From an uncultured delta proteobacterium (GTDB lineage: Bacteria; Myxococcota_A; Polyangia; Polyangiales; Polyangiaceae): a stretch of DNA of 64,000 nt. The notes below the pieces were generated by a model. It had not been told where the DNA came from. It did not search any database and worked only from the letters and a program-made list of their open reading frames with translations. The translations under genes were made by a program, and so were the position numbers. Shown piece by piece: positions 17,337-30,309 of this stretch (position 1 is the stretch's first letter; every line of letters begins with the position of its first letter). The stretch covers positions 5,920,001-5,984,000 of the forward strand of contig CAWAIF010000003.1 of assembly GCA_963782055.1 (NCBI GenBank), in the 5' to 3' direction.

Positions 17337-18389
17337 TCAGTGGGCGACGCACACGTCGGTGTCGCCGACGTGGGTGCACCAGTAGCCGTTGGGGCACCTG
17401 TCGCCGTGGCCGCAGGGGCGCGAGCAGTACTTGTCCCCGCTGTCGTCCACGCAGACGCCGGCGGCGCAGTCGGCGCCCTTCTCGCAGGGCTCGCCCATGT
17501 CGCTCTCCGGCTTCTGCTGCTTGGGCGGCTTGACGCCCGCGTCCTTCTTCACGGTGACGACGCCGCCGTCGGTGTCGGCGGGCTCCTGCCCGCTCTTGGC
17601 CAGGGCGGAGGCGATGAGGTCGGCGAAGGCGTCCGCCCGCGTGTAGATGTTGTGCACGTCCTTGCCCTCGCAGCTGGGGCCGCCGCGCGAGACGACGCCC
17701 ATCACGTCGCCGGTGGACTCCTCCAGCGCGGGGCCGCCGGAGTCGCCGTTGCAGGTGGCCTCGCCCACCTGGAACTCGCTGTCGGTCGCGCTGAGGATCC
17801 GCACGTGATCGCGCAGGAGCTTGACGCCGGCGCTCTGCAGGTCCCCCGCCTTGCCGAAGCCGACGGCGCGCACGGTGCCGTTCTTCCTGGGGACCTTCTT
17901 GCTGATGTGCAGCGGGGCGATGCCGGCGACGTCGCGGTCCAGGACGATCGCCGCGATGTCGTGGTCGCAGAGGGTCTTCGCCTTCGGCACCACCAGCTCG
18001 CGACCGCGGGCGACGAAGGTGGAGTGCTCGACGTCGTCGCCGACGTAGATGGCGAGGGAGCTCGCCGGCCGATCGCCGCTGATCTGCACGCCGTCGGCCG
18101 GGCAGGCGACCGACTCGCTGGTGATGGAGACGCAGTGCCGGGCCGTGAGGACGACGTCGGTCGCGATGAGGGTGCCGCTGCACAGTCCCTCGCCCCCCAC
18201 GTCGATGGCGACGACGGCAGGGTCGCGCCCGTTGTCGGGCACGCCCTTGACGATCTCGGTGGTGTCGACCTGAACGGCCGCGTCGGCGCCGGCGTCGGAC
18301 GGGACGGGGCGCGCCTTGGCGGTGAGCGCACCGGAGCAGCCGGTGAGCAGGGTGGAGAGAACGAGCGTTCGAACGATGACAGCTTGCAT
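17337..18389 (-). CDS. Trypsin-like (S1) serine protease lipoprotein
   Basis: Lipobox LTGC; LTARHC, HDIA, CNGDSGGP; Cys-rich tail. Confidence 0.9.
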   Translation of the reverse strand: MQAVIVRTLVLSTLLTGCSGALTAKARPVPSDAGADAAVQVDTTEIVKGVPDNGRDPAVVAIDVGGEGLCSGTLIATDVVLTARHCVSITSESVACPADGVQISGDRPASSLAIYVGDDVEHSTFVARGRELVVPKAKTLCDHDIAAIVLDRDVAGIAPLHISKKVPRKNGTVRAVGFGKAGDLQSAGVKLLRDHVRILSATDSEFQVGEATCNGDSGGPALEESTGDVMGVVSRGGPSCEGKDVHNIYTRADAFADLIASALAKSGQEPADTDGGVVTVKKDAGVKPPKQQKPESDMGEPCEKGADCAAGVCVDDSGDKYCSRPCGHGDRCPNGYWCTHVGDTDVCVAH

Positions 18390-18420
18390 GGAACGTGACC
18401 TCCTTCGAGAGGTCGTCTCC

Positions 18421-18436
18421 GCAACGCGCGTGCCGG
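18421..18436 (-). promoter_or_regulatory. Sigma54 -24/-12 promoter of the S1 protease gene
   Basis: Minus strand CCGGCACGCGCGTTGC (GG-N10-GC), about 30 nt upstream of the ATG, with a GGAGG RBS in between. Confidence 0.6.
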
Positions 18437-18522
18437 CCACGGCGAGGCTGATTTCCCGAGCGCGCGCCTGTCCCAGGTGTCCGCGCCGCCTGTCCGGGGA
18501 CACCCCGGGTCCCGCGGAGCGC

Positions 18523-22208: not shown

Positions 22209-23468
22209 TCAGTGGCAGGCCGGGCGAGAACCGGGCTCACGAAGCCAGCAGGCGCCGTCGAACACCTCGCGCGGGCCTGTCCCGTCCTTGGCGAGCTTGC
22301 GCAGGATCTCGCCGTCCGCGTCGGGGTCGACCAGCCGCGCGGCGATGCGCGGGTGCGGGTTGCTCCTGTCGAGCACGTGCTCGTTGTCCGTCCACACCAG
22401 GTGATAGCCCCAGGCGAGGGCCGGCTTGCCTGCGTCGTCGAAGCTCCAGGAGAGGTCGGCGATCATTCCCAGCCGCGTCCAGCCATTGAGGTAGACGACG
22501 TGCCGGTCCTGCTGCCGCGCCGGGAAGCGCGGCGTCCAGGACTCGCCCTGGTTGGAGACGAGGTTGCCGACCGAGGCGAAGACCGGCACGCGCCGGCCGT
22601 CCTCCGTGGTCACCACCTGCAGCGGGCTGACCACGTGCGGGTGGTGAATGACGACCGCGCTCGCGCCCGCCTCGGCGACGGCGCGGGCGAGCCCGAGCAT
22701 GGCGGCGGTCTGGGGAAGGTACTCCTCGCCACCGTGGAAGATGGCGATCGTGGCGTCGCACCCGGCGTGGAAGGCGCGTGCGATGCCCAGCGCCGCCTTC
22801 AGCTGGCCTCGCCGGTCGGGTGTGGCGACCGCCAGCTCGGCGGAGCTCGCGCAGGCGGAGCGGCGCTCGTTGGAGAAGGTGGTCCACGCCACCGCGCACA
22901 CGCGGAAGCCGGGCGTGTCGACCAGCACGCGCGCCTTCCACGGGTCGTCCGCGGCGGCGCCGAGCGCGGTGGTCCCCGTGGCGTCGGCGGCGGCGAGCGT
23001 CGCGCGCAGACCGCGCCCGCCCAGGTCGCAGGTGTGGTTGTTCGCCACCGTCAGCGCGTGAAGACCCGCGTCGTGCAGGGCGCGCATCCACTCCGGCGTC
23101 GCCGCCAGCGTGAAGGTGTGGGGGACCATCCCGCTCGGATCGCCCGTCGCCGTCTCGTAGTTCGCCACCGCGACGTCGGCCGATGCGAACAGCGGCGAGA
23201 GCGGCCAGAGCGCCTCCGCCACGCGCGGCGGGTCCACCAGCTGAGGCCGGTGAGGCAGCACGTCGCCCGCGACCAGCACGCGCACCGGCCGCCGGGCGAC
23301 CTTCGCGACCGCGGCATGGGCCGGCGCCCCCCCCCGACGCGGAACCTTCGGCGGCTCCGCGGCGACCGCGAGCTGCGCGTGGTTCGCCGGGACCTGCGCC
23401 GCCGGGTCGGGCGCCCCGCACGCCGCCGCGAGGCCCACGAGCGCCAGGATCACGCGGCCGAGCGTCAT
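22209..23468 (-). CDS. CapA/PGA_cap-family metallophosphoesterase-like lipoprotein
   Basis: Lipobox LAAAC; VAGDVL, ANYET, VANNHTCD, FHGGEEY, HHPHV, SVGNLVS. Confidence 0.8.
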   Translation of the reverse strand: MTLGRVILALVGLAAACGAPDPAAQVPANHAQLAVAAEPPKVPRRGGAPAHAAVAKVARRPVRVLVAGDVLPHRPQLVDPPRVAEALWPLSPLFASADVAVANYETATGDPSGMVPHTFTLAATPEWMRALHDAGLHALTVANNHTCDLGGRGLRATLAAADATGTTALGAAADDPWKARVLVDTPGFRVCAVAWTTFSNERRSACASSAELAVATPDRRGQLKAALGIARAFHAGCDATIAIFHGGEEYLPQTAAMLGLARAVAEAGASAVVIHHPHVVSPLQVVTTEDGRRVPVFASVGNLVSNQGESWTPRFPARQQDRHVVYLNGWTRLGMIADLSWSFDDAGKPALAWGYHLVWTDNEHVLDRSNPHPRIAARLVDPDADGEILRKLAKDGTGPREVFDGACWLREPGSRPACH

Positions 23469-23572
23469 GAGCGGAATTGTCACGTGGCGCTCTCGCGATG
23501 GCCAAGAAGCCGGTGGCGACCAGCCCGCGCGTCCGCTCACCCGCGCCGAAGCGTGACCGCTCGGCGCGCCGG

Positions 23573-24805
23573 TCACTTCAGCGTGATGCGTGCCAGGCGG
23601 CACGCGCCGCCGAAGTTGGGCAGCGGGTGCGCGTAGCCCACCACGATCTGCTTCCCGTCGACGGAGCGCAGCGCCCCGTGCTCCTTGGCGAGATAGTTGG
23701 TGCCCGCGTCGCCCGTCACGAAGGCGCTGCCTGAGACCACCACCTCCGGGTCGGTCCACGGACCCGTGATGGCGTCGGCGGTGCGCAACGCGACGTCGTC
23801 GGAGAGCGGCTTGCTGTAGACGGCCAGCCACTTGCCGAGCCACGGGTTGCGCTGGATGGAGATCCCGTAGCTCGCGCGGTCGATGAACCACGCGGCCTGC
23901 GTCACGTCGGCCACCCACCCCGCGCCACTCCAGAAGGTGTACGCAGCCCTCGTCGTGGCGCCGGCGACCGGCGCCTTGGCGATCTTGCAGTGGTAGTCGA
24001 ACCCCAGCGCCTGCTCGCAGTCGAAGAGGTAGACGGTGTCGCCGTCGACCGTGGCGCCGCCGACCCCGAAGAGCGGGTCGGGCGGCTGGAAGAGGAAGCT
24101 GGGATCGCGCGTGGCCTGCGTCGAGTCCTTCGTGACGTGCGCGGTGCCGACGGCGTCCACGGCGAAGCCGCTCCCGCCGCTGCGCACGACGTGGTTGAAG
24201 AGCACCACGCCCTCCGTCGCGCTGGTCGGGATCACCGAGCCGGGCCAGAGGGCGAAGCCGTTGCCCGCGTCCGCCTGGTTCTGCGCCACCTCGGCCGGCG
24301 TGTAGGGGATGAACTCCATCGGCAGCCCGGCGTCGTCCAGCGGCTCGGTGAGGGCCAGCGGGCTCGCGGGCGTGCTCCACCCCGCGGTGCTGGAGCGCAC
24401 CGAGGTGCCGTCCTGCGCGTTCGGCTTGGTCAGGAAGGTGTCGCCGAACGTCCAGACCAGCTCGCCCCCGATCAGCCCCGACGTCGTCCCGTCGCGCCCG
24501 ACCACCGTCCCCGGCGCGCTGAAGGCGCCCAGGTCGTCGACGTGGTCGACGGCGAGCACGTGCCCCCCAGCGTCCGCTGCGGCGTCGACTCCGGCGTCGC
24601 CCGGCGCATCCGGGTTGCTGCACGCAACAACGAGCGGCAGCGCGACCGCCAGCGCGAGGACCGGCGCGCGTTCCCGGGACGTGCGCCGCGGCGCACCACC
24701 CTCCCCGTGTGGCGCGCGAAGCGCGACACCGTGGGGAGGGCGCCCACGCGCAGGGCCCGCGCGCAAGCTCTCGTGCGCGGCGACGTCCGTGTACTCTGCA
24801 CCCAT
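23573..24805 (-). CDS. DUF4185-like beta-propeller lipoprotein (start uncertain)
   Basis: Lipobox VVAC; GRDG...WTFGDTF, YTFWSGAGW, GPWTDP. Confidence 0.6.
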   Translation of the reverse strand: MGAEYTDVAAHESLRAGPARGRPPHGVALRAPHGEGGAPRRTSRERAPVLALAVALPLVVACSNPDAPGDAGVDAAADAGGHVLAVDHVDDLGAFSAPGTVVGRDGTTSGLIGGELVWTFGDTFLTKPNAQDGTSVRSSTAGWSTPASPLALTEPLDDAGLPMEFIPYTPAEVAQNQADAGNGFALWPGSVIPTSATEGVVLFNHVVRSGGSGFAVDAVGTAHVTKDSTQATRDPSFLFQPPDPLFGVGGATVDGDTVYLFDCEQALGFDYHCKIAKAPVAGATTRAAYTFWSGAGWVADVTQAAWFIDRASYGISIQRNPWLGKWLAVYSKPLSDDVALRTADAITGPWTDPEVVVSGSAFVTGDAGTNYLAKEHGALRSVDGKQIVVGYAHPLPNFGGACRLARITLK

Positions 24806-24870: not shown

Positions 24871-26154
24871 TCATCCCTCGGTCTCCCCGAACGCCTGGTA
24901 CCGCGCGCGCTCCTCCTCGCTCGGCCATGCCTCCTTCACGATCGCGAACTTTCCATGATCGAAGGGCAGCCCCGGCGCCTCCGCCACCTTCACGATCCGC
25001 TCCCGCTCCCCGCTCGCGAGCAGCTCCAGCGCGCGGTGATGGCAGTACGGGTTGTCCCCCGCCTTGCCGAAGAGCACGTGCGTCGTCCAGTTGCAGCCCG
25101 CCATGCACGCCTCCGCGTAGTAGCAGGTGCGGCAGAAGCCGCCGAGGTCCTCCACCGTGCGGTCGCGGGTGAAGCGCAGCTCCTTGCTCTGCTCCCAGAT
25201 GTCCAGGAGCGTGGCGTCGCGCACGTTGCCGCCGACGTACTCCTCCGTCGGGAGGGAGGGGCAGCCCTTGATGTCGCCGTTGGCCTCGATGCCCAGCACC
25301 AGGCGGCCCGCGCCGCACGGCCCGCGGTGCTTCTGCGCGTACATGCTGCGCAGGTGCGCCTCGAAGGGACCGAAGTACCCGATGTTGTTGCCCGCCCAGA
25401 AGCGGACGCCCGTCTCGTCGGCGCGCGACTTGAGGCGCGCGAGCATCGGGATCACCTCCAGCACCTGATACGGCTCCAGCAGCATCTCCGGCTCGTCGCC
25501 GGCGCGGCCCATGGCGGTGGTGAGCTGCATCTGCCAGCCGTGGATCTTCTTCTTCACGAAGATCTCGAAGACCTCGGGGATCTCGTGCAGGTTGACGCGG
25601 TTGATCTGCGTGTTGGCGGCGATGGCGATGCCGGCCGCCTTGGCGTTGTCCATCGCCGCCATGGCGGCGGCGAAGCTCCCCTCCACGCCGCGCAGCAGAT
25701 CGTGTGTACTCTGCAATCCATCCACCGACACGCTGATGCTCTGGATGCCCGCCGCCTTCGCCGCGCGCGCGCGCTCCGCCGTCAGCCCGCGGCCGCCGGT
25801 GGTCATCGTGCACTGCATGCCGAGGCGGCGGATCTCCCGGGCGATGTCCACCCAGTCCTCGCGCAGGTAGGCCTCGCCGCCGATGAGGGTCACCTCCAGC
25901 ACGCCGAGCTCGTGCATCTGCCGGACGAGATCGAGCGCCTGCGCGGTGTCCAGCTCGTCCGGGCGGCCGCGGCCGGCGCGCGAGCCGCAGTGGCGGCAGG
26001 CGAGATCGCAGGCGAGGGTGATCTCCCAGACGGCGTAGATGGGGCGGACCTTGTCCTTGTCGCGCACCTCCGCGGCGAGCGGCAGCCGCCGCTTCGACGG
26101 CTCCGCCATCGGGGCGATGGGGAGGCTGCGCGGGCGGGCGCCGAGGATGGTCAC
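24871..26154 (-). CDS. Radical SAM/SPASM peptide maturase, PlpX (splicease)-like
   Basis: YAVWEITLACDLACRHCGSRAG (CxxxCxxC), GNNIGYFGP; SPASM region LGIEANGDIKGCPSL...CRTCYYAEACMAGC...NPYCHHRAL, PGLPFDHG. Confidence 0.9.
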   Translation of the reverse strand: MTILGARPRSLPIAPMAEPSKRRLPLAAEVRDKDKVRPIYAVWEITLACDLACRHCGSRAGRGRPDELDTAQALDLVRQMHELGVLEVTLIGGEAYLREDWVDIAREIRRLGMQCTMTTGGRGLTAERARAAKAAGIQSISVSVDGLQSTHDLLRGVEGSFAAAMAAMDNAKAAGIAIAANTQINRVNLHEIPEVFEIFVKKKIHGWQMQLTTAMGRAGDEPEMLLEPYQVLEVIPMLARLKSRADETGVRFWAGNNIGYFGPFEAHLRSMYAQKHRGPCGAGRLVLGIEANGDIKGCPSLPTEEYVGGNVRDATLLDIWEQSKELRFTRDRTVEDLGGFCRTCYYAEACMAGCNWTTHVLFGKAGDNPYCHHRALELLASGERERIVKVAEAPGLPFDHGKFAIVKEAWPSEEERARYQAFGETEG

Positions 26155-26520
26155 TCAGTCGCCCCCGGAGTCGAGGGTTCCGGCGTCGGGCGGCGGGCCG
26201 CCGTAGGCGCCCTGGAGCGCGTCGGGGCCGGCGTCCTTCGCGGCGGCGTCGGCGTCGGGCCCGCCGTCCGCCAGCGCCGCGTCGTCTCCGTTGCCGCCGT
26301 CGTACGGAGGGGCGGGCGCCCCGTACACGGGCGTCAGTACCACGCCGCTGCCGCAGGCCGTCGCCACCATCGTAGCGCCGGCGACGAGCACGGCGCGGCT
26401 CACGCGCCCCGGAGCCACGCGCGCAGGAATGGAGTCGACGCGCGCCTCGCCGCAGAAGGGACAGCGGGCGTCCTCCGCGCGCACGTGGCGGCGGCAGTGC
26501 TCGCAAAGGTGAAAGCTCAT
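26155..26520 (-). CDS. Putative RiPP precursor 1 (Zn-ribbon leader, lipobox, two YG motifs)
   Basis: CEHCRRHVRAEDARCPFCG; VATAC; PVYGAP and GAYGGPP. Confidence 0.8.
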   Translation of the reverse strand: MSFHLCEHCRRHVRAEDARCPFCGEARVDSIPARVAPGRVSRAVLVAGATMVATACGSGVVLTPVYGAPAPPYDGGNGDDAALADGGPDADAAAKDAGPDALQGAYGGPPPDAGTLDSGGD

Positions 26521-26532
26521 GACGTGAGCGTA

Positions 26533-26607
26533 TCAACCGCCGCAGAAGGGGCAAGCAGCGTCCGCGCGCGCGCGCGGCGGCTGGCAGCCGTCGCGGGTGA
26601 AGCTCAC
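26533..26607 (-). pseudogene. 24-codon degenerate copy of the precursor leader
   Basis: Manual translation from GTG: MSFTRDGCQPPRARADAACPFCGG*. Confidence 0.6.
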
Positions 26608-26619
26608 GGCCTCAGGCCA

Positions 26620-27081
26620 TCAAAGGTCCGGTGGGTGGTCCTTCGGCGGCTTGTGGTGACGCGGGGGCGGCGGGCCTCCGTAGACGGTGACGTGCCTGCG
26701 ACGCCCGGCGTCGGCGGCGTCCGGCGAAGCGGTGTGATCGCTCACGCCGGCGTCCGGTCCGGCCGTGTCCTCGCTCGCGCCGGCATCGGGGGGCGCGACG
26801 GTGGGGATGGGCGGGGGAGGCGCCCCGTAGGCGGGCACCGCGACCACCGTCGGCATCGGCGCGGGCGGAGACGCGGACTTGTCGGTGAACCACCCGCGCG
26901 GATCGGCGGTCGTGTTGCAGCCGACGGCGACGGCCGCGACGCCGACGAGGGCCGCGCGGGTGAGGCGAGCCGGCGCCGTCCGTGAGGGCGCGGAGGCGGC
27001 CCCGGCGGATGCACCACAGAAGGGGCACGCGGCGTCGGCGGATCGCACGTGCCGGCGGCACGCCGCGCAGACGACGAGCAT
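26620..27081 (-). CDS. Putative RiPP precursor 2
   Basis: MLVVCAACRRHVRSADAACPFCG; VAVGC; PAYGAPP and TVYGGPP; TGATG overlap with precursor 3. Confidence 0.8.
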   Translation of the reverse strand: MLVVCAACRRHVRSADAACPFCGASAGAASAPSRTAPARLTRAALVGVAAVAVGCNTTADPRGWFTDKSASPPAPMPTVVAVPAYGAPPPPIPTVAPPDAGASEDTAGPDAGVSDHTASPDAADAGRRRHVTVYGGPPPPRHHKPPKDHPPDL

Positions 27082-27443
27082 CAGTCGGTTCCGGCGTCGG
27101 TGGGCGGGCCCCCGTACGCCGCGATCGGTCCCTCGTCGGCCGCGTCCTGCGGCGGCGCGGCGTCGAGGGGCGGGCCGCCGTAAAAGACGAGCGGCCCGTC
27201 GATCGACGAGTCCTTGGCGGCGTCCAGGCCGGCGGCGTCGGCGCCGCCGTCGGTGGGCTCGGTCGTGCTGCCGCCACACGCCACCGCCACCGCCGCCACG
27301 CCGATGAGCGCCGCCGCACGGCTCTTGCGCCAGGGCGAGCCCGGCGATCGCCCGGCGCCGACGATGGTGGCGCCGCAGAAGGGACACGCGGCGTCCTCCT
27401 GCTTCACGTGACGCGCGCACCCGGAGCAAATGCAGAGCGGCAT
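27081..27443 (-). CDS. Putative RiPP precursor 3
   Basis: GGAGG RBS; MPLCICSGCARHVKQEDAACPFCG; VAVAC; VFYGGPP and AAYGGPP. Confidence 0.8.
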   Translation of the reverse strand: MPLCICSGCARHVKQEDAACPFCGATIVGAGRSPGSPWRKSRAAALIGVAAVAVACGGSTTEPTDGGADAAGLDAAKDSSIDGPLVFYGGPPLDAAPPQDAADEGPIAAYGGPPTDAGTD

Positions 27444-27632
27444 GGGCGAGACCTCCCGAGACGTCGAGGATACCGCACCGCGCCACCGCAGGGGCACGAA
27501 ACCACGGCGGGGCCGGTATCCATCCCCCTCGATGGGGTTTGGCGGGTGCTAGCGTGCAGTCCATGGCGCTGGTCCCCTGTCCATCGTGCCGACGCCACGT
27601 GCGCGAGGAGGAGTCGTGCCCCTCGTGACTGA

Positions 27633-28028
27633 CTACACCATCAGTCCCGGCAGCGGCCCCTGACCGGCCTGCCCGAAGGTGGGCGTCGGGTCCCCCATCG
27701 CCCGGGCGATGCTCACCAGCAGATCGGCGTGCCGGTGGTAGCCCACGTCGTGGAGCTGGCCGGTGTGGACCGCGCCGCCCCCGCCGCCCCCCAGGATGAA
27801 CGCCCTGACCATGTGCTTCGACACCGCCGACGCGCAGTCGCCGGTGCACTTCTTCGGGTCGTCGAAGGGCATCTTGGCGTCGACGAAGCTGGTGAGCGAG
27901 GCGAGGTCATAGCGCGGCCCGCGATCGCGCAGGGAGGGGCCGCTGCCGCCCTCGCCCTGCGCGCCGTGGCAGCTCGCGCATTGCGACGCGTAGATCGGCT
28001 TGCCGTCCTGCGCAAAATTCCGCCACAT
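27633..28028 (-). CDS. c-type cytochrome domain (CxxCH) fused to an unrelated C-terminal fragment; possible relic
   Basis: CASCH and KMP; no signal peptide; tail ends ...TFGQAGQGPLPGLMV. Confidence 0.6.
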   Translation of the reverse strand: MWRNFAQDGKPIYASQCASCHGAQGEGGSGPSLRDRGPRYDLASLTSFVDAKMPFDDPKKCTGDCASAVSKHMVRAFILGGGGGGAVHTGQLHDVGYHRHADLLVSIARAMGDPTPTFGQAGQGPLPGLMV

Positions 28029-29064: not shown

Positions 29065-29427
29065 ATGTCGGACTACTTCGTCGCGGGCGGTTGGGGAATG
29101 TATCCGGTGACGCTCTTCGGGTTCTTACTGGTGGCGGTGACGGCGCTGCACGCGCTGCGGCCCCGGCCCGTCTACGCGCGGCTGGCGCTCGTCCTGGGGA
29201 TCGCCACCTTCATGGCCGGGCTGCTCGGCACCGCGACGGGCATCAGCGCGACGGCACACTACATCCAGCACGTCGCGCAGCCGAAGCAGGTGGAGATCTT
29301 CGCCCTCGGCCTGGACGAGTCGCTGCACGACCTGGTGCTCTCGATGATCCTCGTGGTCGTCGCGTGCCTCATCGCCACCGTCGGCGTCCTCCGCAACGGG
29401 AGGACCTCGGCCCCGGCCGCGGCGTGA
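29065..29427 (+). CDS. Small three-TM membrane protein (MotA/ExbB-like segment)
   Basis: GGWGMYP, GLLGTATG. Confidence 0.7.
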   Translation: MSDYFVAGGWGMYPVTLFGFLLVAVTALHALRPRPVYARLALVLGIATFMAGLLGTATGISATAHYIQHVAQPKQVEIFALGLDESLHDLVLSMILVVVACLIATVGVLRNGRTSAPAAA

Positions 29428-29431
29428 GGGG

Positions 29432-29953
29432 ATGGACTCCGACGAGGCCCTCTTCCGGCGGTGGGTCGGAGGCGACATGCGCGCCTTCGACCTCCTCCAT
29501 GACCGCTTCGAGCGCCCGCTCTTCGGCTTCATACGCGCGCAGGTGGGCGACGCCGGCGAGGCGGAGGACGTGCTGCACGAGACCTTCATGGCGCTGCTGC
29601 GCGAGCGCCCGGACGAGCTGCGGAGCTTCCGCGCGTGGGTCTACACCGTCGCGCGTCACCTCTGCCAGAACCGCGTGCGGTCGCGCAAGCGCGCCGGCCG
29701 CGCGCACGAGGCGGCGGCGGTGACGGCCACCGTCCCCGCGGGAGCGCACGAGCAGCTGGAGGCGCACGAGCGCGGCGTGCTGCTGGAGCGCGCGGTCGCC
29801 CGCCTCCCCTCCTCCCTCGCGGAGGTCTACCGGCTGCGGGGCGCCGGGATGTCCTACGACGAGGTCGCCGAGATCCTCGAGGTCCCGGTGACGACGGTGA
29901 GGTCGCGCGTGCACGAGATGGTCAAGCGGTTGCGAGAAGAGGTGGCGTCATGA
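29432..29953 (+). CDS. ECF sigma factor
   Basis: AEDVLHETF, FRAWVYTVARH, SYDEVAEILEVPVTTVRSR. Confidence 0.92.
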   Translation: MDSDEALFRRWVGGDMRAFDLLHDRFERPLFGFIRAQVGDAGEAEDVLHETFMALLRERPDELRSFRAWVYTVARHLCQNRVRSRKRAGRAHEAAAVTATVPAGAHEQLEAHERGVLLERAVARLPSSLAEVYRLRGAGMSYDEVAEILEVPVTTVRSRVHEMVKRLREEVAS

Positions 29954-30309
29954 GCTGCGCGGAGATCGAGCAGGAGCTCGTCGGGTATCACTTCAACACC
30001 CTGCCCCAGGACGTACGGCGGCGGGTGGAGGCGCACCTGCCGGAGTGCGACGCGTGCGTCCGCGCCTTCGTCGAGCTCAAGCGCGACATCGAGACGGGCG
30101 AGGAGGCCCCGCGGCCCTCGGAGGCGGCGCGCCTCCGACTGCGCCGCGCGGTGGCCCGGGAGCTGGGCGTGGAGGCGCCGCGGTGGCGCTGGTGGGAGCG
30201 GCCGGCGGCGATCGCCTTCGCCGCCTCGGTGGTGCTCGCCGCCGGGATGACGACGCGCCTGCTCACCTCGCGGCCGGGCGCGCCGCCGCACGCCATCACC
30301 GATCGCTGA
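29950..30309 (+). CDS. Zinc-finger (zf-HC2) anti-sigma factor
   Basis: HLPECDAC (HxxxCxxC) plus one TM; ATGA overlap with the sigma gene. Confidence 0.85.
   Translation: MSCAEIEQELVGYHFNTLPQDVRRRVEAHLPECDACVRAFVELKRDIETGEEAPRPSEAARLRLRRAVARELGVEAPRWRWWERPAAIAFAASVVLAAGMTTRLLTSRPGAPPHAITDR

Follow-up and report, generated by a model that had tools for sequence, protein, structure and literature searches.

Spliceases excise tyramine at xYG sites of precursor proteins, and the keto-amides of the resulting spliceotides inhibit proteases (PMC11414181; accessible part of PMC11626197). Splicease-like enzymes were reported in 189 genera by Scott et al. 2022 (as given in the accessible part of PMC10849128), and the accessible part of the PMC11414181 supplement names spliceotide types II, III and V only. 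Here we describe a putative splicease locus in a 64,000-nucleotide stretch of DNA from an uncultured member of the Polyangiaceae (hereafter the window; G000:C3:5920001-5984000). The locus consists of a radical S-adenosylmethionine (SAM)/SPASM enzyme gene, X, preceded by three precursor genes, A1 to A3, whose products start with a zinc finger.

Three kinds of described system come closest. The type I systems of Pleurocapsa (PlpX/PlpY/PlpA and PcpXYA) have a radical SAM/SPASM enzyme of a neighboring clade with five motifs in common with X, and they likewise combine xYG sites with several precursors per enzyme. They differ in their separate Y protein, whereas no Y family recurs in X loci, and in their Nif11 or nitrile-hydratase leaders, where A1-A3 instead carry finger, signal, and lipobox. 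The GDL/DUF1843 systems (TIGR03913; Azospirillum locus L085 and Aureibacter locus L086) share the two-component layout, about 50% enzyme identity, YG in neighboring small proteins, and the same C-x2-C-x10-CP[HF]C finger. There, however, the finger is the enzyme C-terminus, whereas here it is the substrate N-terminus, and the GDL precursors are short DUF1843 proteins without a signal. GDL-type enzymes reportedly splice, a result ascribed to Scott and colleagues. The type II systems of Rheinheimera (RhaA/RhaX, RcsA/RcsX, and RasA/RasX) are Y-independent, and the N-terminal region of the substrate engages the enzyme (PMC11414181; accessible part of PMC11626197) through a movable element, which can sit either on the substrate or at the C-terminus of the enzyme (PMC11414181). 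The movable element is helical and these systems give released peptides, in a comparison made by description and not with the RhaX sequence. Finally, the A proteins resemble bacterial lipoproteins handled by Lgt and LspA in their basic stretch, hydrophobic segment, lipobox, and disordered tether; they have in addition about 35 extra N-terminal residues that hold a zinc finger, and their tether carries YG sites.

The enzyme family and the reaction are known, and the variant is the finger-tagged, lipoprotein-type precursor, which belongs to no Pfam or NCBIfam family. We propose, as a reading that we hold to be slightly favored overall, that finger-guided splicing is followed by export to give lipid-anchored keto-amide proteins. 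Full-text searching found no literature on this precursor class or on lipoprotein spliceotides, with Scott et al. 2022 lying outside the search, and the accessible parts of PMC11876861, PMC10885120, and PMC13647313 do not mention the class. The weight of the finding is limited by what was already known of family and reaction, and because the 2022 survey may already list this clade.

Layout of the locus

The original prediction, made from the letters of the window, described four co-oriented and tightly packed genes. All four indeed lie on the minus strand across 24871-27443, with a coding-frame GC content at third codon positions (GC3) of 0.88-0.96. Packing is tight where A1 and A2 overlap by 1 base and where A3 abuts X, but A2 and A3 are separated by a 99-nt gap. 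The precursors are true paralogs, as proposed, with A2 and A3 showing 52-53% identity to A1. The six YG[AG]P sites listed in A1-A3 are present as written, and all five motifs listed for the enzyme are found in X. At the locus, no sigma-70 promoter-like site was found, and a single terminator-like match was at chance level. The features are:

24871..26154, minus strand: X, splicease-clade radical SAM/SPASM enzyme without a C-terminal zinc finger, 427 aa from GTG (Pfam Radical_SAM and SPASM over cut-off); an alternative ATG start at 26109 gives 412 aa
25987..26010, minus strand: CxxxCxxC radical SAM cluster motif of X (Cys49, 53, and 56)
25120..25317, minus strand: SPASM domain of X with auxiliary-cluster cysteines (PF13186, residues 280-345)
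25354..25374, minus strand: main predicted finger-docking patch of X, residues 246-252 of the 412-aa form (complex model)
26155..26520, minus strand: A3, 121 aa
26452-26505 and 26353-26355, within A3: zinc finger and lipobox Cys56
26323-26325 and 26203-26205, within A3: Tyr66 (VYG) and Tyr106 (AYG)
26620..27081, minus strand: A2, 153 aa
27016-27069 and 26917-26919, within A2: zinc finger and lipobox Cys55
26827-26829 and 26680-26682, within A2: Tyr85 (AYG) and Tyr134 (VYG)
27081..27443, minus strand: A1, 120 aa, with GGAGG 7 nt 5' of its ATG
27375-27434 and 27276-27278, within A1: zinc finger and lipobox Cys56
27180-27182 and 27114-27116, within A1: Tyr88 (FYG) and Tyr110 (AYG)

Enzyme X and the splicease clade

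The original prediction had likened X to PlpX and asked for a phylogeny and profile comparison; by profiles, a FastTree tree, and conserved columns, X falls inside the splicease clade, where TIGR04103 members, not the PlpX sequence itself, stood for the PlpX family. Among NCBIfam models, X scored 481 bits on TIGR04103 and 444 bits on TIGR03913, and the next-best family reached 156. A true TIGR04103 member and a true TIGR03913 member scored 853 and 761 bits on their own models, and members of the two families scored 414.5 and 438.7 bits on each other's model; X is therefore as close to both families as these are to one another. We take TIGR04103 and IPR026482 to name one family. The accessible part of PMC11002830 gives IPR026482 as the PlpX family. 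Amino acid identity of X was 51% to a TIGR04103 member and about 50% to type I and GDL enzymes. Its closest relatives are Myxococcota proteins (titled Myxococcales or Polyangiaceae), in agreement with the predicted myxobacterial origin.

In the tree (FastTree only, unrooted, 87 rows; 61 of 150 representatives plus a random 14 myxobacterial and 5 cyanobacterial loci; P0159, an apparent frameshift chimera, excluded), the myxobacterial enzyme clade (95) groups with the type I enzymes of cyanobacteria (95), and the GDL enzymes with a C-terminal finger join the two (96). Conserved columns shared by 40 type I enzymes and 40 GDL enzymes number 126; X retains 112 of these, compared to 69-89 in 22 more distant SPASM proteins. 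Similarly, of 78 type I enzymes, 75-78 have each of the five motifs, which are absent from all 22 distant proteins, and the CxxxCxxC motif is invariant across 113 aligned X homologs. An AlphaFold2 model of X had a mean predicted local distance difference test score (pLDDT) of 90.8. The closest matches by sequence in the PDB were SkfB and PqqE (E-values 1e-19 to 4e-17), with no splicease among them.

Several results weigh against a straightforward assignment. X stays under the curated cut-offs of both families (725 for TIGR04103 and 591.75 for TIGR03913) and deviates at 14 of the 126 clade-conserved columns. The cyanobacterial scans covered 160 loci, without the Pleurocapsa strains that carry PlpX, and the GDL-seeded scan covered 11 loci with no Rheinheimera, so that RhaX was not among them. 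Radical SAM families often change reaction, and identities of only about 50% to type I and GDL enzymes, scores below both cut-offs, and the 14 differing columns would all suit an X that uses other radical chemistry at YG, such as a Tyr cross-link or a side-chain cleavage. Yet X groups with the PlpX family and has all five motifs, and the selected substrate motif described below is the same xYG; we regard a different chemistry as quite improbable. By descent, X should work like a splicease, although its sequence makes it a member of neither curated family, and by analogy with the described enzymes splicing at YG by X is highly probable.

YG sites and pairing of precursors with X

Tyr is followed by Gly in six of seven instances in A1-A3, the exception being A3 Tyr73. 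By itself, YG[AG]P is about as frequent in this genome as expected by chance (82 observed vs 68 expected in 16,118 open reading frames [ORFs] of high GC3). The motif occurs twice in only 3 of the 79 ORFs that hold it, each of them a finger-type precursor (A2 was excluded by the filter). Homologous precursors were taken from 80 loci that encode relatives of X. A finger ORF lies within 4 kb of the X relative in 69 of the 80 loci, giving 135 ORFs in all, and 9 of the 11 loci without one are cut by contig ends. Three rows were dropped (one antisense artefact, and the ORFs of L050 and L072, which look real and miss the stricter pattern), leaving 132 precursors, of which 124 are complete; the 8 cut by contigs were left out of the Tyr counts.

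In the 124 complete precursors, 330 of 377 Tyr (88%) precede Gly, against a Gly frequency of 12% and a Phe-Gly frequency of 6%, and Pro stands two places past the Gly in 274 of the 330 YG sites. At least one YG is present in 122 of 124, none of them before the lipobox Cys, and up to five spaced sites occur in one precursor. By contrast, only 18 of 226 Tyr (8%) precede Gly in ordinary lipoprotein-like control ORFs. The conservation of YG in homologous precursors that the original prediction relied on was also seen in 45 further regions, where all 44 complete finger ORFs, orphans included, had at least one YG (two end-cut ORFs had none). In 9 of these 44 and in one orphan precursor of the genome, a YG directly follows the lipobox Cys.

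Pairing was also evident across 201 genomes of the phylum. X was found in 57 (E-value 1e-100) and the precursor head in 28 (1e-6); X accompanies the head in 27 of these 28, and in the remaining genome X is split. Of 58 precursor matches, 40 have an X match within 5 kb and 18 do not. Among 20 X-centered regions from genomes without a precursor-head match, 9 had a finger ORF and 5 another YG-bearing ORF. Two qualifications count against the strength of this association: the remaining 6 of the 20 regions had no precursor, and the counted genomes are kin, not independent, and may overlap with the 80 loci, so the counts were not pooled. Low-complexity tails like those of the A proteins are common in the genome, and together with the near-expected count of YG[AG]P this could mean that the A genes are ordinary lipoprotein genes that happen to lie beside X. 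This reading is already contradicted by the selection of Tyr before Gly (88% vs 8%), by the pairing in 69 of 80 loci, and by the proximity counts, and we consider it extremely improbable.

The particular sites in A1-A3 call for more caution. Native spliceotide sites have Met or Leu before YG (accessible parts of PMC11414181 and PMC11626197), and the DYG site of RcsA is left unmodified (accessible part of PMC11626197). In the 330 homologous sites, the preceding residue is Leu in 111, Ala in 56, Phe in 19, and Val in 14. The Val, Ala, and Phe of A1-A3 are thus unlike the native sites described in the same parts of these papers, which tells against modification at every site. Because DYG is not modified and because Phe, Ala, and Val are rarer than Leu, the six sites are candidates only.

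Lipoprotein-type signal and disordered tail

The spliceotide reading of the original prediction is borne out as far as the splicease-clade enzyme and the conserved YG are concerned, but the precursors are not classical leader-core peptides, and the prediction, which noted the YG sites, mentioned neither zinc finger nor lipoprotein-type signal. In A1-A3, a finger of the form C-x2-C-x-R-H-x7-C-P-F-C is followed by a basic stretch, a hydrophobic segment, and an Ala/Gly-Cys at residue 55-56; beyond this lipobox Cys lies a disordered tail of Ala, Gly, Pro, and Asp that holds the two xYG[AG]P sites of each protein. In the AlphaFold2 model of A3, the finger is the only confident fold (pLDDT 85-94), and the remainder (50-64) has no secondary structure.

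The lipobox pattern, [LAV]-x-[AG]-C with a small residue at +2, is that of the other lipoproteins of the genome. By our own lipobox rule, a lipobox-like Cys is present in 121 of 132 homologous precursors, with Ala or Gly at -1 in 114 of the 121. As a control, we used 452 long ORFs of the genome that combine a short classical signal with a first Cys and were picked without regard to lipobox letters. These had the same lipobox letters (Ala or Gly at -1 in 370) and the same tail make-up. The genome encodes Lgt (3 matches) and LspA (2 matches). In one homolog (L024:3282-4010), finger, lipobox, and YG are fused to a C-terminal OmpA peptidoglycan-binding domain. Export by the twin-arginine (Tat) route was rejected, since the S/T-R-R-x-F-L motif occurs in 0 of 132 precursors.

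Profile searches of A1-A3 found no Nif11, nitrile-hydratase or NHLP leader and no DUF1843. No Pfam or NCBIfam family covers the precursors (at most 1 of 102 members matched per NCBIfam family); the PF11617 Cys-rich motif was over its cut-off in 4 of 8 other homologs tested and below it in 1. Atlas matches were to unnamed Myxococcota clusters only, and the precursor alignments were too variable for a pattern scan.

Some observations speak against lipidation as a general rule. The lipobox Cys lies at a median residue of 60 in the homologs, far later than in classical signal peptides; its late position in A1-A3 (55-56) results from the zinc finger that precedes the signal. In locus L267, Asp replaces the Cys in 4 of 5 complete precursors, and for this reason lipidation appears not to be universal among homologous precursors. 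The four precursors without lipobox Cys would fit a pathway to classical released peptides, in which X splices YG, finger and hydrophobic helix serve as a leader, the helix acts like the activating helix of PlpY or RhaA, and housekeeping proteases free soluble keto-amide peptides. In keeping with it, the leaders of binary spliceotides activate their enzyme through a helix (PMC11414181), and the repeated short YG units of many homologs resemble multi-core precursors. On the other side, the Cys is nearly invariant in a context that matches the ordinary lipoproteins of the genome, an OmpA domain stands behind the Cys in one homolog, no conserved peptidase lies nearby, and the confident contacts of the complex model described below are those of the finger. 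We judge release of soluble peptides to be unlikely. Because finger, signal, and lipobox are combined with no conserved peptidase or transporter, membrane-anchored proteins are more likely products of the A genes than released peptides, and lipoprotein export is, by analogy, a likely fate.

The shared zinc finger and its predicted docking on X

The finger recurs in two positions. GDL/DUF1843-type enzymes carry it at the C-terminus in 120 of 120 cases, with exactly C-x2-C-x10-C-P-[HF]-C in 119, and 101 of 130 precursors share this spacing. No such C-terminal finger is found on 120 near homologs from myxobacteria, on 92 enzymes from myxobacterial loci, or on 78 type I enzymes. A profile built from the enzyme fingers only ranks the six precursors of the genome at the top of 95,581 ORFs, with a truncated stub described below next, and the profile-profile probability between enzyme and precursor fingers is 98.4%. 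In the GDL enzymes L085:2420-3970 and L086:2956-4380, the C-terminus consists of the finger and a predicted helical stretch unnamed by Pfam. A Foldseek search with the finger gave RanBP2/NZF-type folds on top (root-mean-square deviation of about 1 Å over 26 residues; E-values 0.6-1, not significant); these are protein-binding fingers, and the likeness is a structural lead only. Two possible fusions, either natural or due to gene-calling errors, were seen: in P0125, finger and a signal-like stretch stand ahead of a splicease-clade enzyme, and in P0161 a lipobox-like tail follows an enzyme that is more distant.

A complex model of X with residues 1-75 of A3 scored 0.86, compared to 0.39 for the best control. 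The mark applied is passed by 116 of 157 solved pairs and by 2 of 215 mismatched ones and is roughly valid here (own alignments and a zinc ion were used). Runs had at least 24% of contacts in common and a partner pLDDT of at least 51. Memory of the pair is an unlikely source of this pass, because by sequence no splicease is among the solved structures. The confident contacts are all on the finger (residues 1-21, chiefly Cys9, Arg11, and His12), and on X they are predicted at residues 246-252, 259-261, and 330-334 of the 412-aa form. The model gave no confident placement of the YG site or the hydrophobic segment. At this interface, His261 is retained in 107 of 109 myxobacterial and 39 of 40 GDL enzymes, and Tyr330 in 109 of 109 and 40 of 40; type I enzymes have other residues at both positions in 40 of 40 cases, a pattern that is suggestive only.

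Set against docking, such shared-then-changed positions make up 2 of 14 at the interface vs 12 of 362 elsewhere (p = 0.09). Moreover, one precursor in L276 lacks the finger and those of L272 and L273 are degenerate, and for this reason the finger seems not always to be needed in cis. On the modeled contacts and the shared finger, we consider docking of the finger on X probable.

Further copies, decayed heads, and flanking genes

The same genome encodes a second splicease-clade enzyme, 60% identical to X (G000:C3:2323866-2325519; L001). Right after it lies a finger-lipobox precursor that has a single PYG close to its end, amid residues that include Cys. Of the three finger-tagged genes outside the locus, this precursor included, two are orphans far from either enzyme (G000:C3:119002-119448 and about 1478300-1478534); in the latter, the YG comes right after the lipobox Cys, and the first Cys pair is shortened. 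Likewise, L267 (G049:C128:72000-76000) is an array of six YG genes with finger tags, and the region fetched contains no enzyme; the enzyme gene of that genome (L266) is split in two frames. X probably also serves finger-tagged genes elsewhere in its genome.

Homologous precursor arrays contain up to seven genes. Eighteen of the 80 loci have two X genes (L039, L045-L047, L052, L056, L062-L064, L067-L070, L074-L076, L081, and L082); the copies are divergent (the second 52-63% identical to X) and enclose precursors, which hints at two specificities. Besides X and A genes, no gene family recurs widely near X in the 80 loci, and no peptidase or exporter does. No Y gene recurs among ORFs of at least 120 codons in homologous loci, a size limit that a shorter Y would escape, and none is evident in the window.

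Two decayed precursor heads lie in the locus:

26533..26607, minus strand: decayed precursor head in the A2-A3 gap (repeat families D2/D3 and translation)
27563..27628, plus strand: truncated fourth precursor head, divergent from A1 (finger profile, 29.5 bits)

The first is a relic of 24 codons, in frame with A3, that runs to CPFC-G-G-stop and has a degenerate first Cys pair. The second, 120 nt upstream of A1, is a stub of 21 codons with a stop inside the finger; over 21 aa, it is 81% identical to the start of a precursor in L021. This truncation may be an assembly error. The two heads, together with the homologous arrays, point to a history of repeated duplication and loss.

Next to the stub, an ORF with a small cytochrome c domain (PF13442) and an unrelated-looking tail (27633-28028, minus strand) ends 4 nt from it; it has no paralog in the genome and is absent from other loci, and the junction may be a deletion scar. 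Downstream of X lie genes for a DUF4185 lipoprotein (23573-24700, minus strand) and a PGA_cap (CapA-like) protein (22209-23500, minus strand), neither of which is conserved beside X in other loci. The flanking genes were rejected as parts of the system, as the DUF4185 gene matched 1 locus and no locus matched the cytochrome c gene. The stretch 29065-30309 (plus strand), about 1.6 kb away from the locus, encodes a small membrane protein, an extracytoplasmic function (ECF) sigma factor, and a likely anti-sigma factor. A secreted trypsin-like serine protease ORF (GDSGGP; 17337-18503, minus strand), about 6 kb downstream of X, is of note only because keto-amides inhibit such enzymes.

Proposed pathway and its meaning

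We propose the following pathway. Each A protein, as its sequence is laid out, consists of finger, basic stretch, hydrophobic segment, lipobox Cys, and YG tail. Cytoplasmic X would bind the finger through its Cys-x-Arg-His face, so that the finger that related enzymes carry at their own C-terminus would here be brought by the substrate. If the chemistry of PlpX and RhaX applies, X would then excise a tyramine equivalent (-135.06 Da) at xYG to leave a backbone alpha-keto-beta-Phe, -Ala, or -Val. Iron-sulfur enzymes have to work in the cytoplasm, so that splicing would precede export, and an unfolded tail suits Sec. Following general lipoprotein biology, the unfolded chain would be exported by Sec, Lgt would add diacylglycerol to Cys55/56, and LspA would remove finger and signal, resulting in lipid-anchored tethers of 65-99 residues with up to two keto-amides. 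Taken jointly, these four steps are, in our estimate, a little more probable than their failure.

Least certain is the final step, in which the tethers might be envelope-bound inhibitors or traps of Ser/Cys proteases; by analogy with tested spliceotides, protease inhibition by the spliced tails is a possibility that falls somewhat short of even. The same pathway could serve another purpose, with the keto-amide cross-linking the tether to envelope amines or partners, or tuning a surface matrix, with no inhibition. The keto-amide is described as a uniquely electrophilic group in proteins (accessible part of PMC9811515), and up to five spaced sites and the envelope domains in homologs suit a tether. 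Against such a purpose, tested spliceotides inhibit proteases and their unspliced forms do not (accessible parts of PMC11626197 and PMC10849128), and no partner gene is conserved; we think it improbable. Native spliceotide products had not been isolated as of the review PMC9811515, in its accessible part.

A membrane-anchored form, if true, offers a concrete target, namely defined masses in the membrane fraction. A portable 25-residue finger able to recruit the enzyme could serve as a compact splice tag, and fusing it to the enzyme could give a leader-free splicease, as done with the RhaA helix (PMC11414181). If the proposed pathway holds, it would carry a peptide chemistry over to proteins of the cell envelope in predatory bacteria, whose surroundings contain proteases. 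More tentatively, the myxobacterial splicease may be a genome-wide editor of envelope proteins, with the finger as a removable address tag before lipoprotein signals. In that case, any tagged gene, whether adjacent or scattered, would become a lipid-anchored protein with keto-amide warheads.

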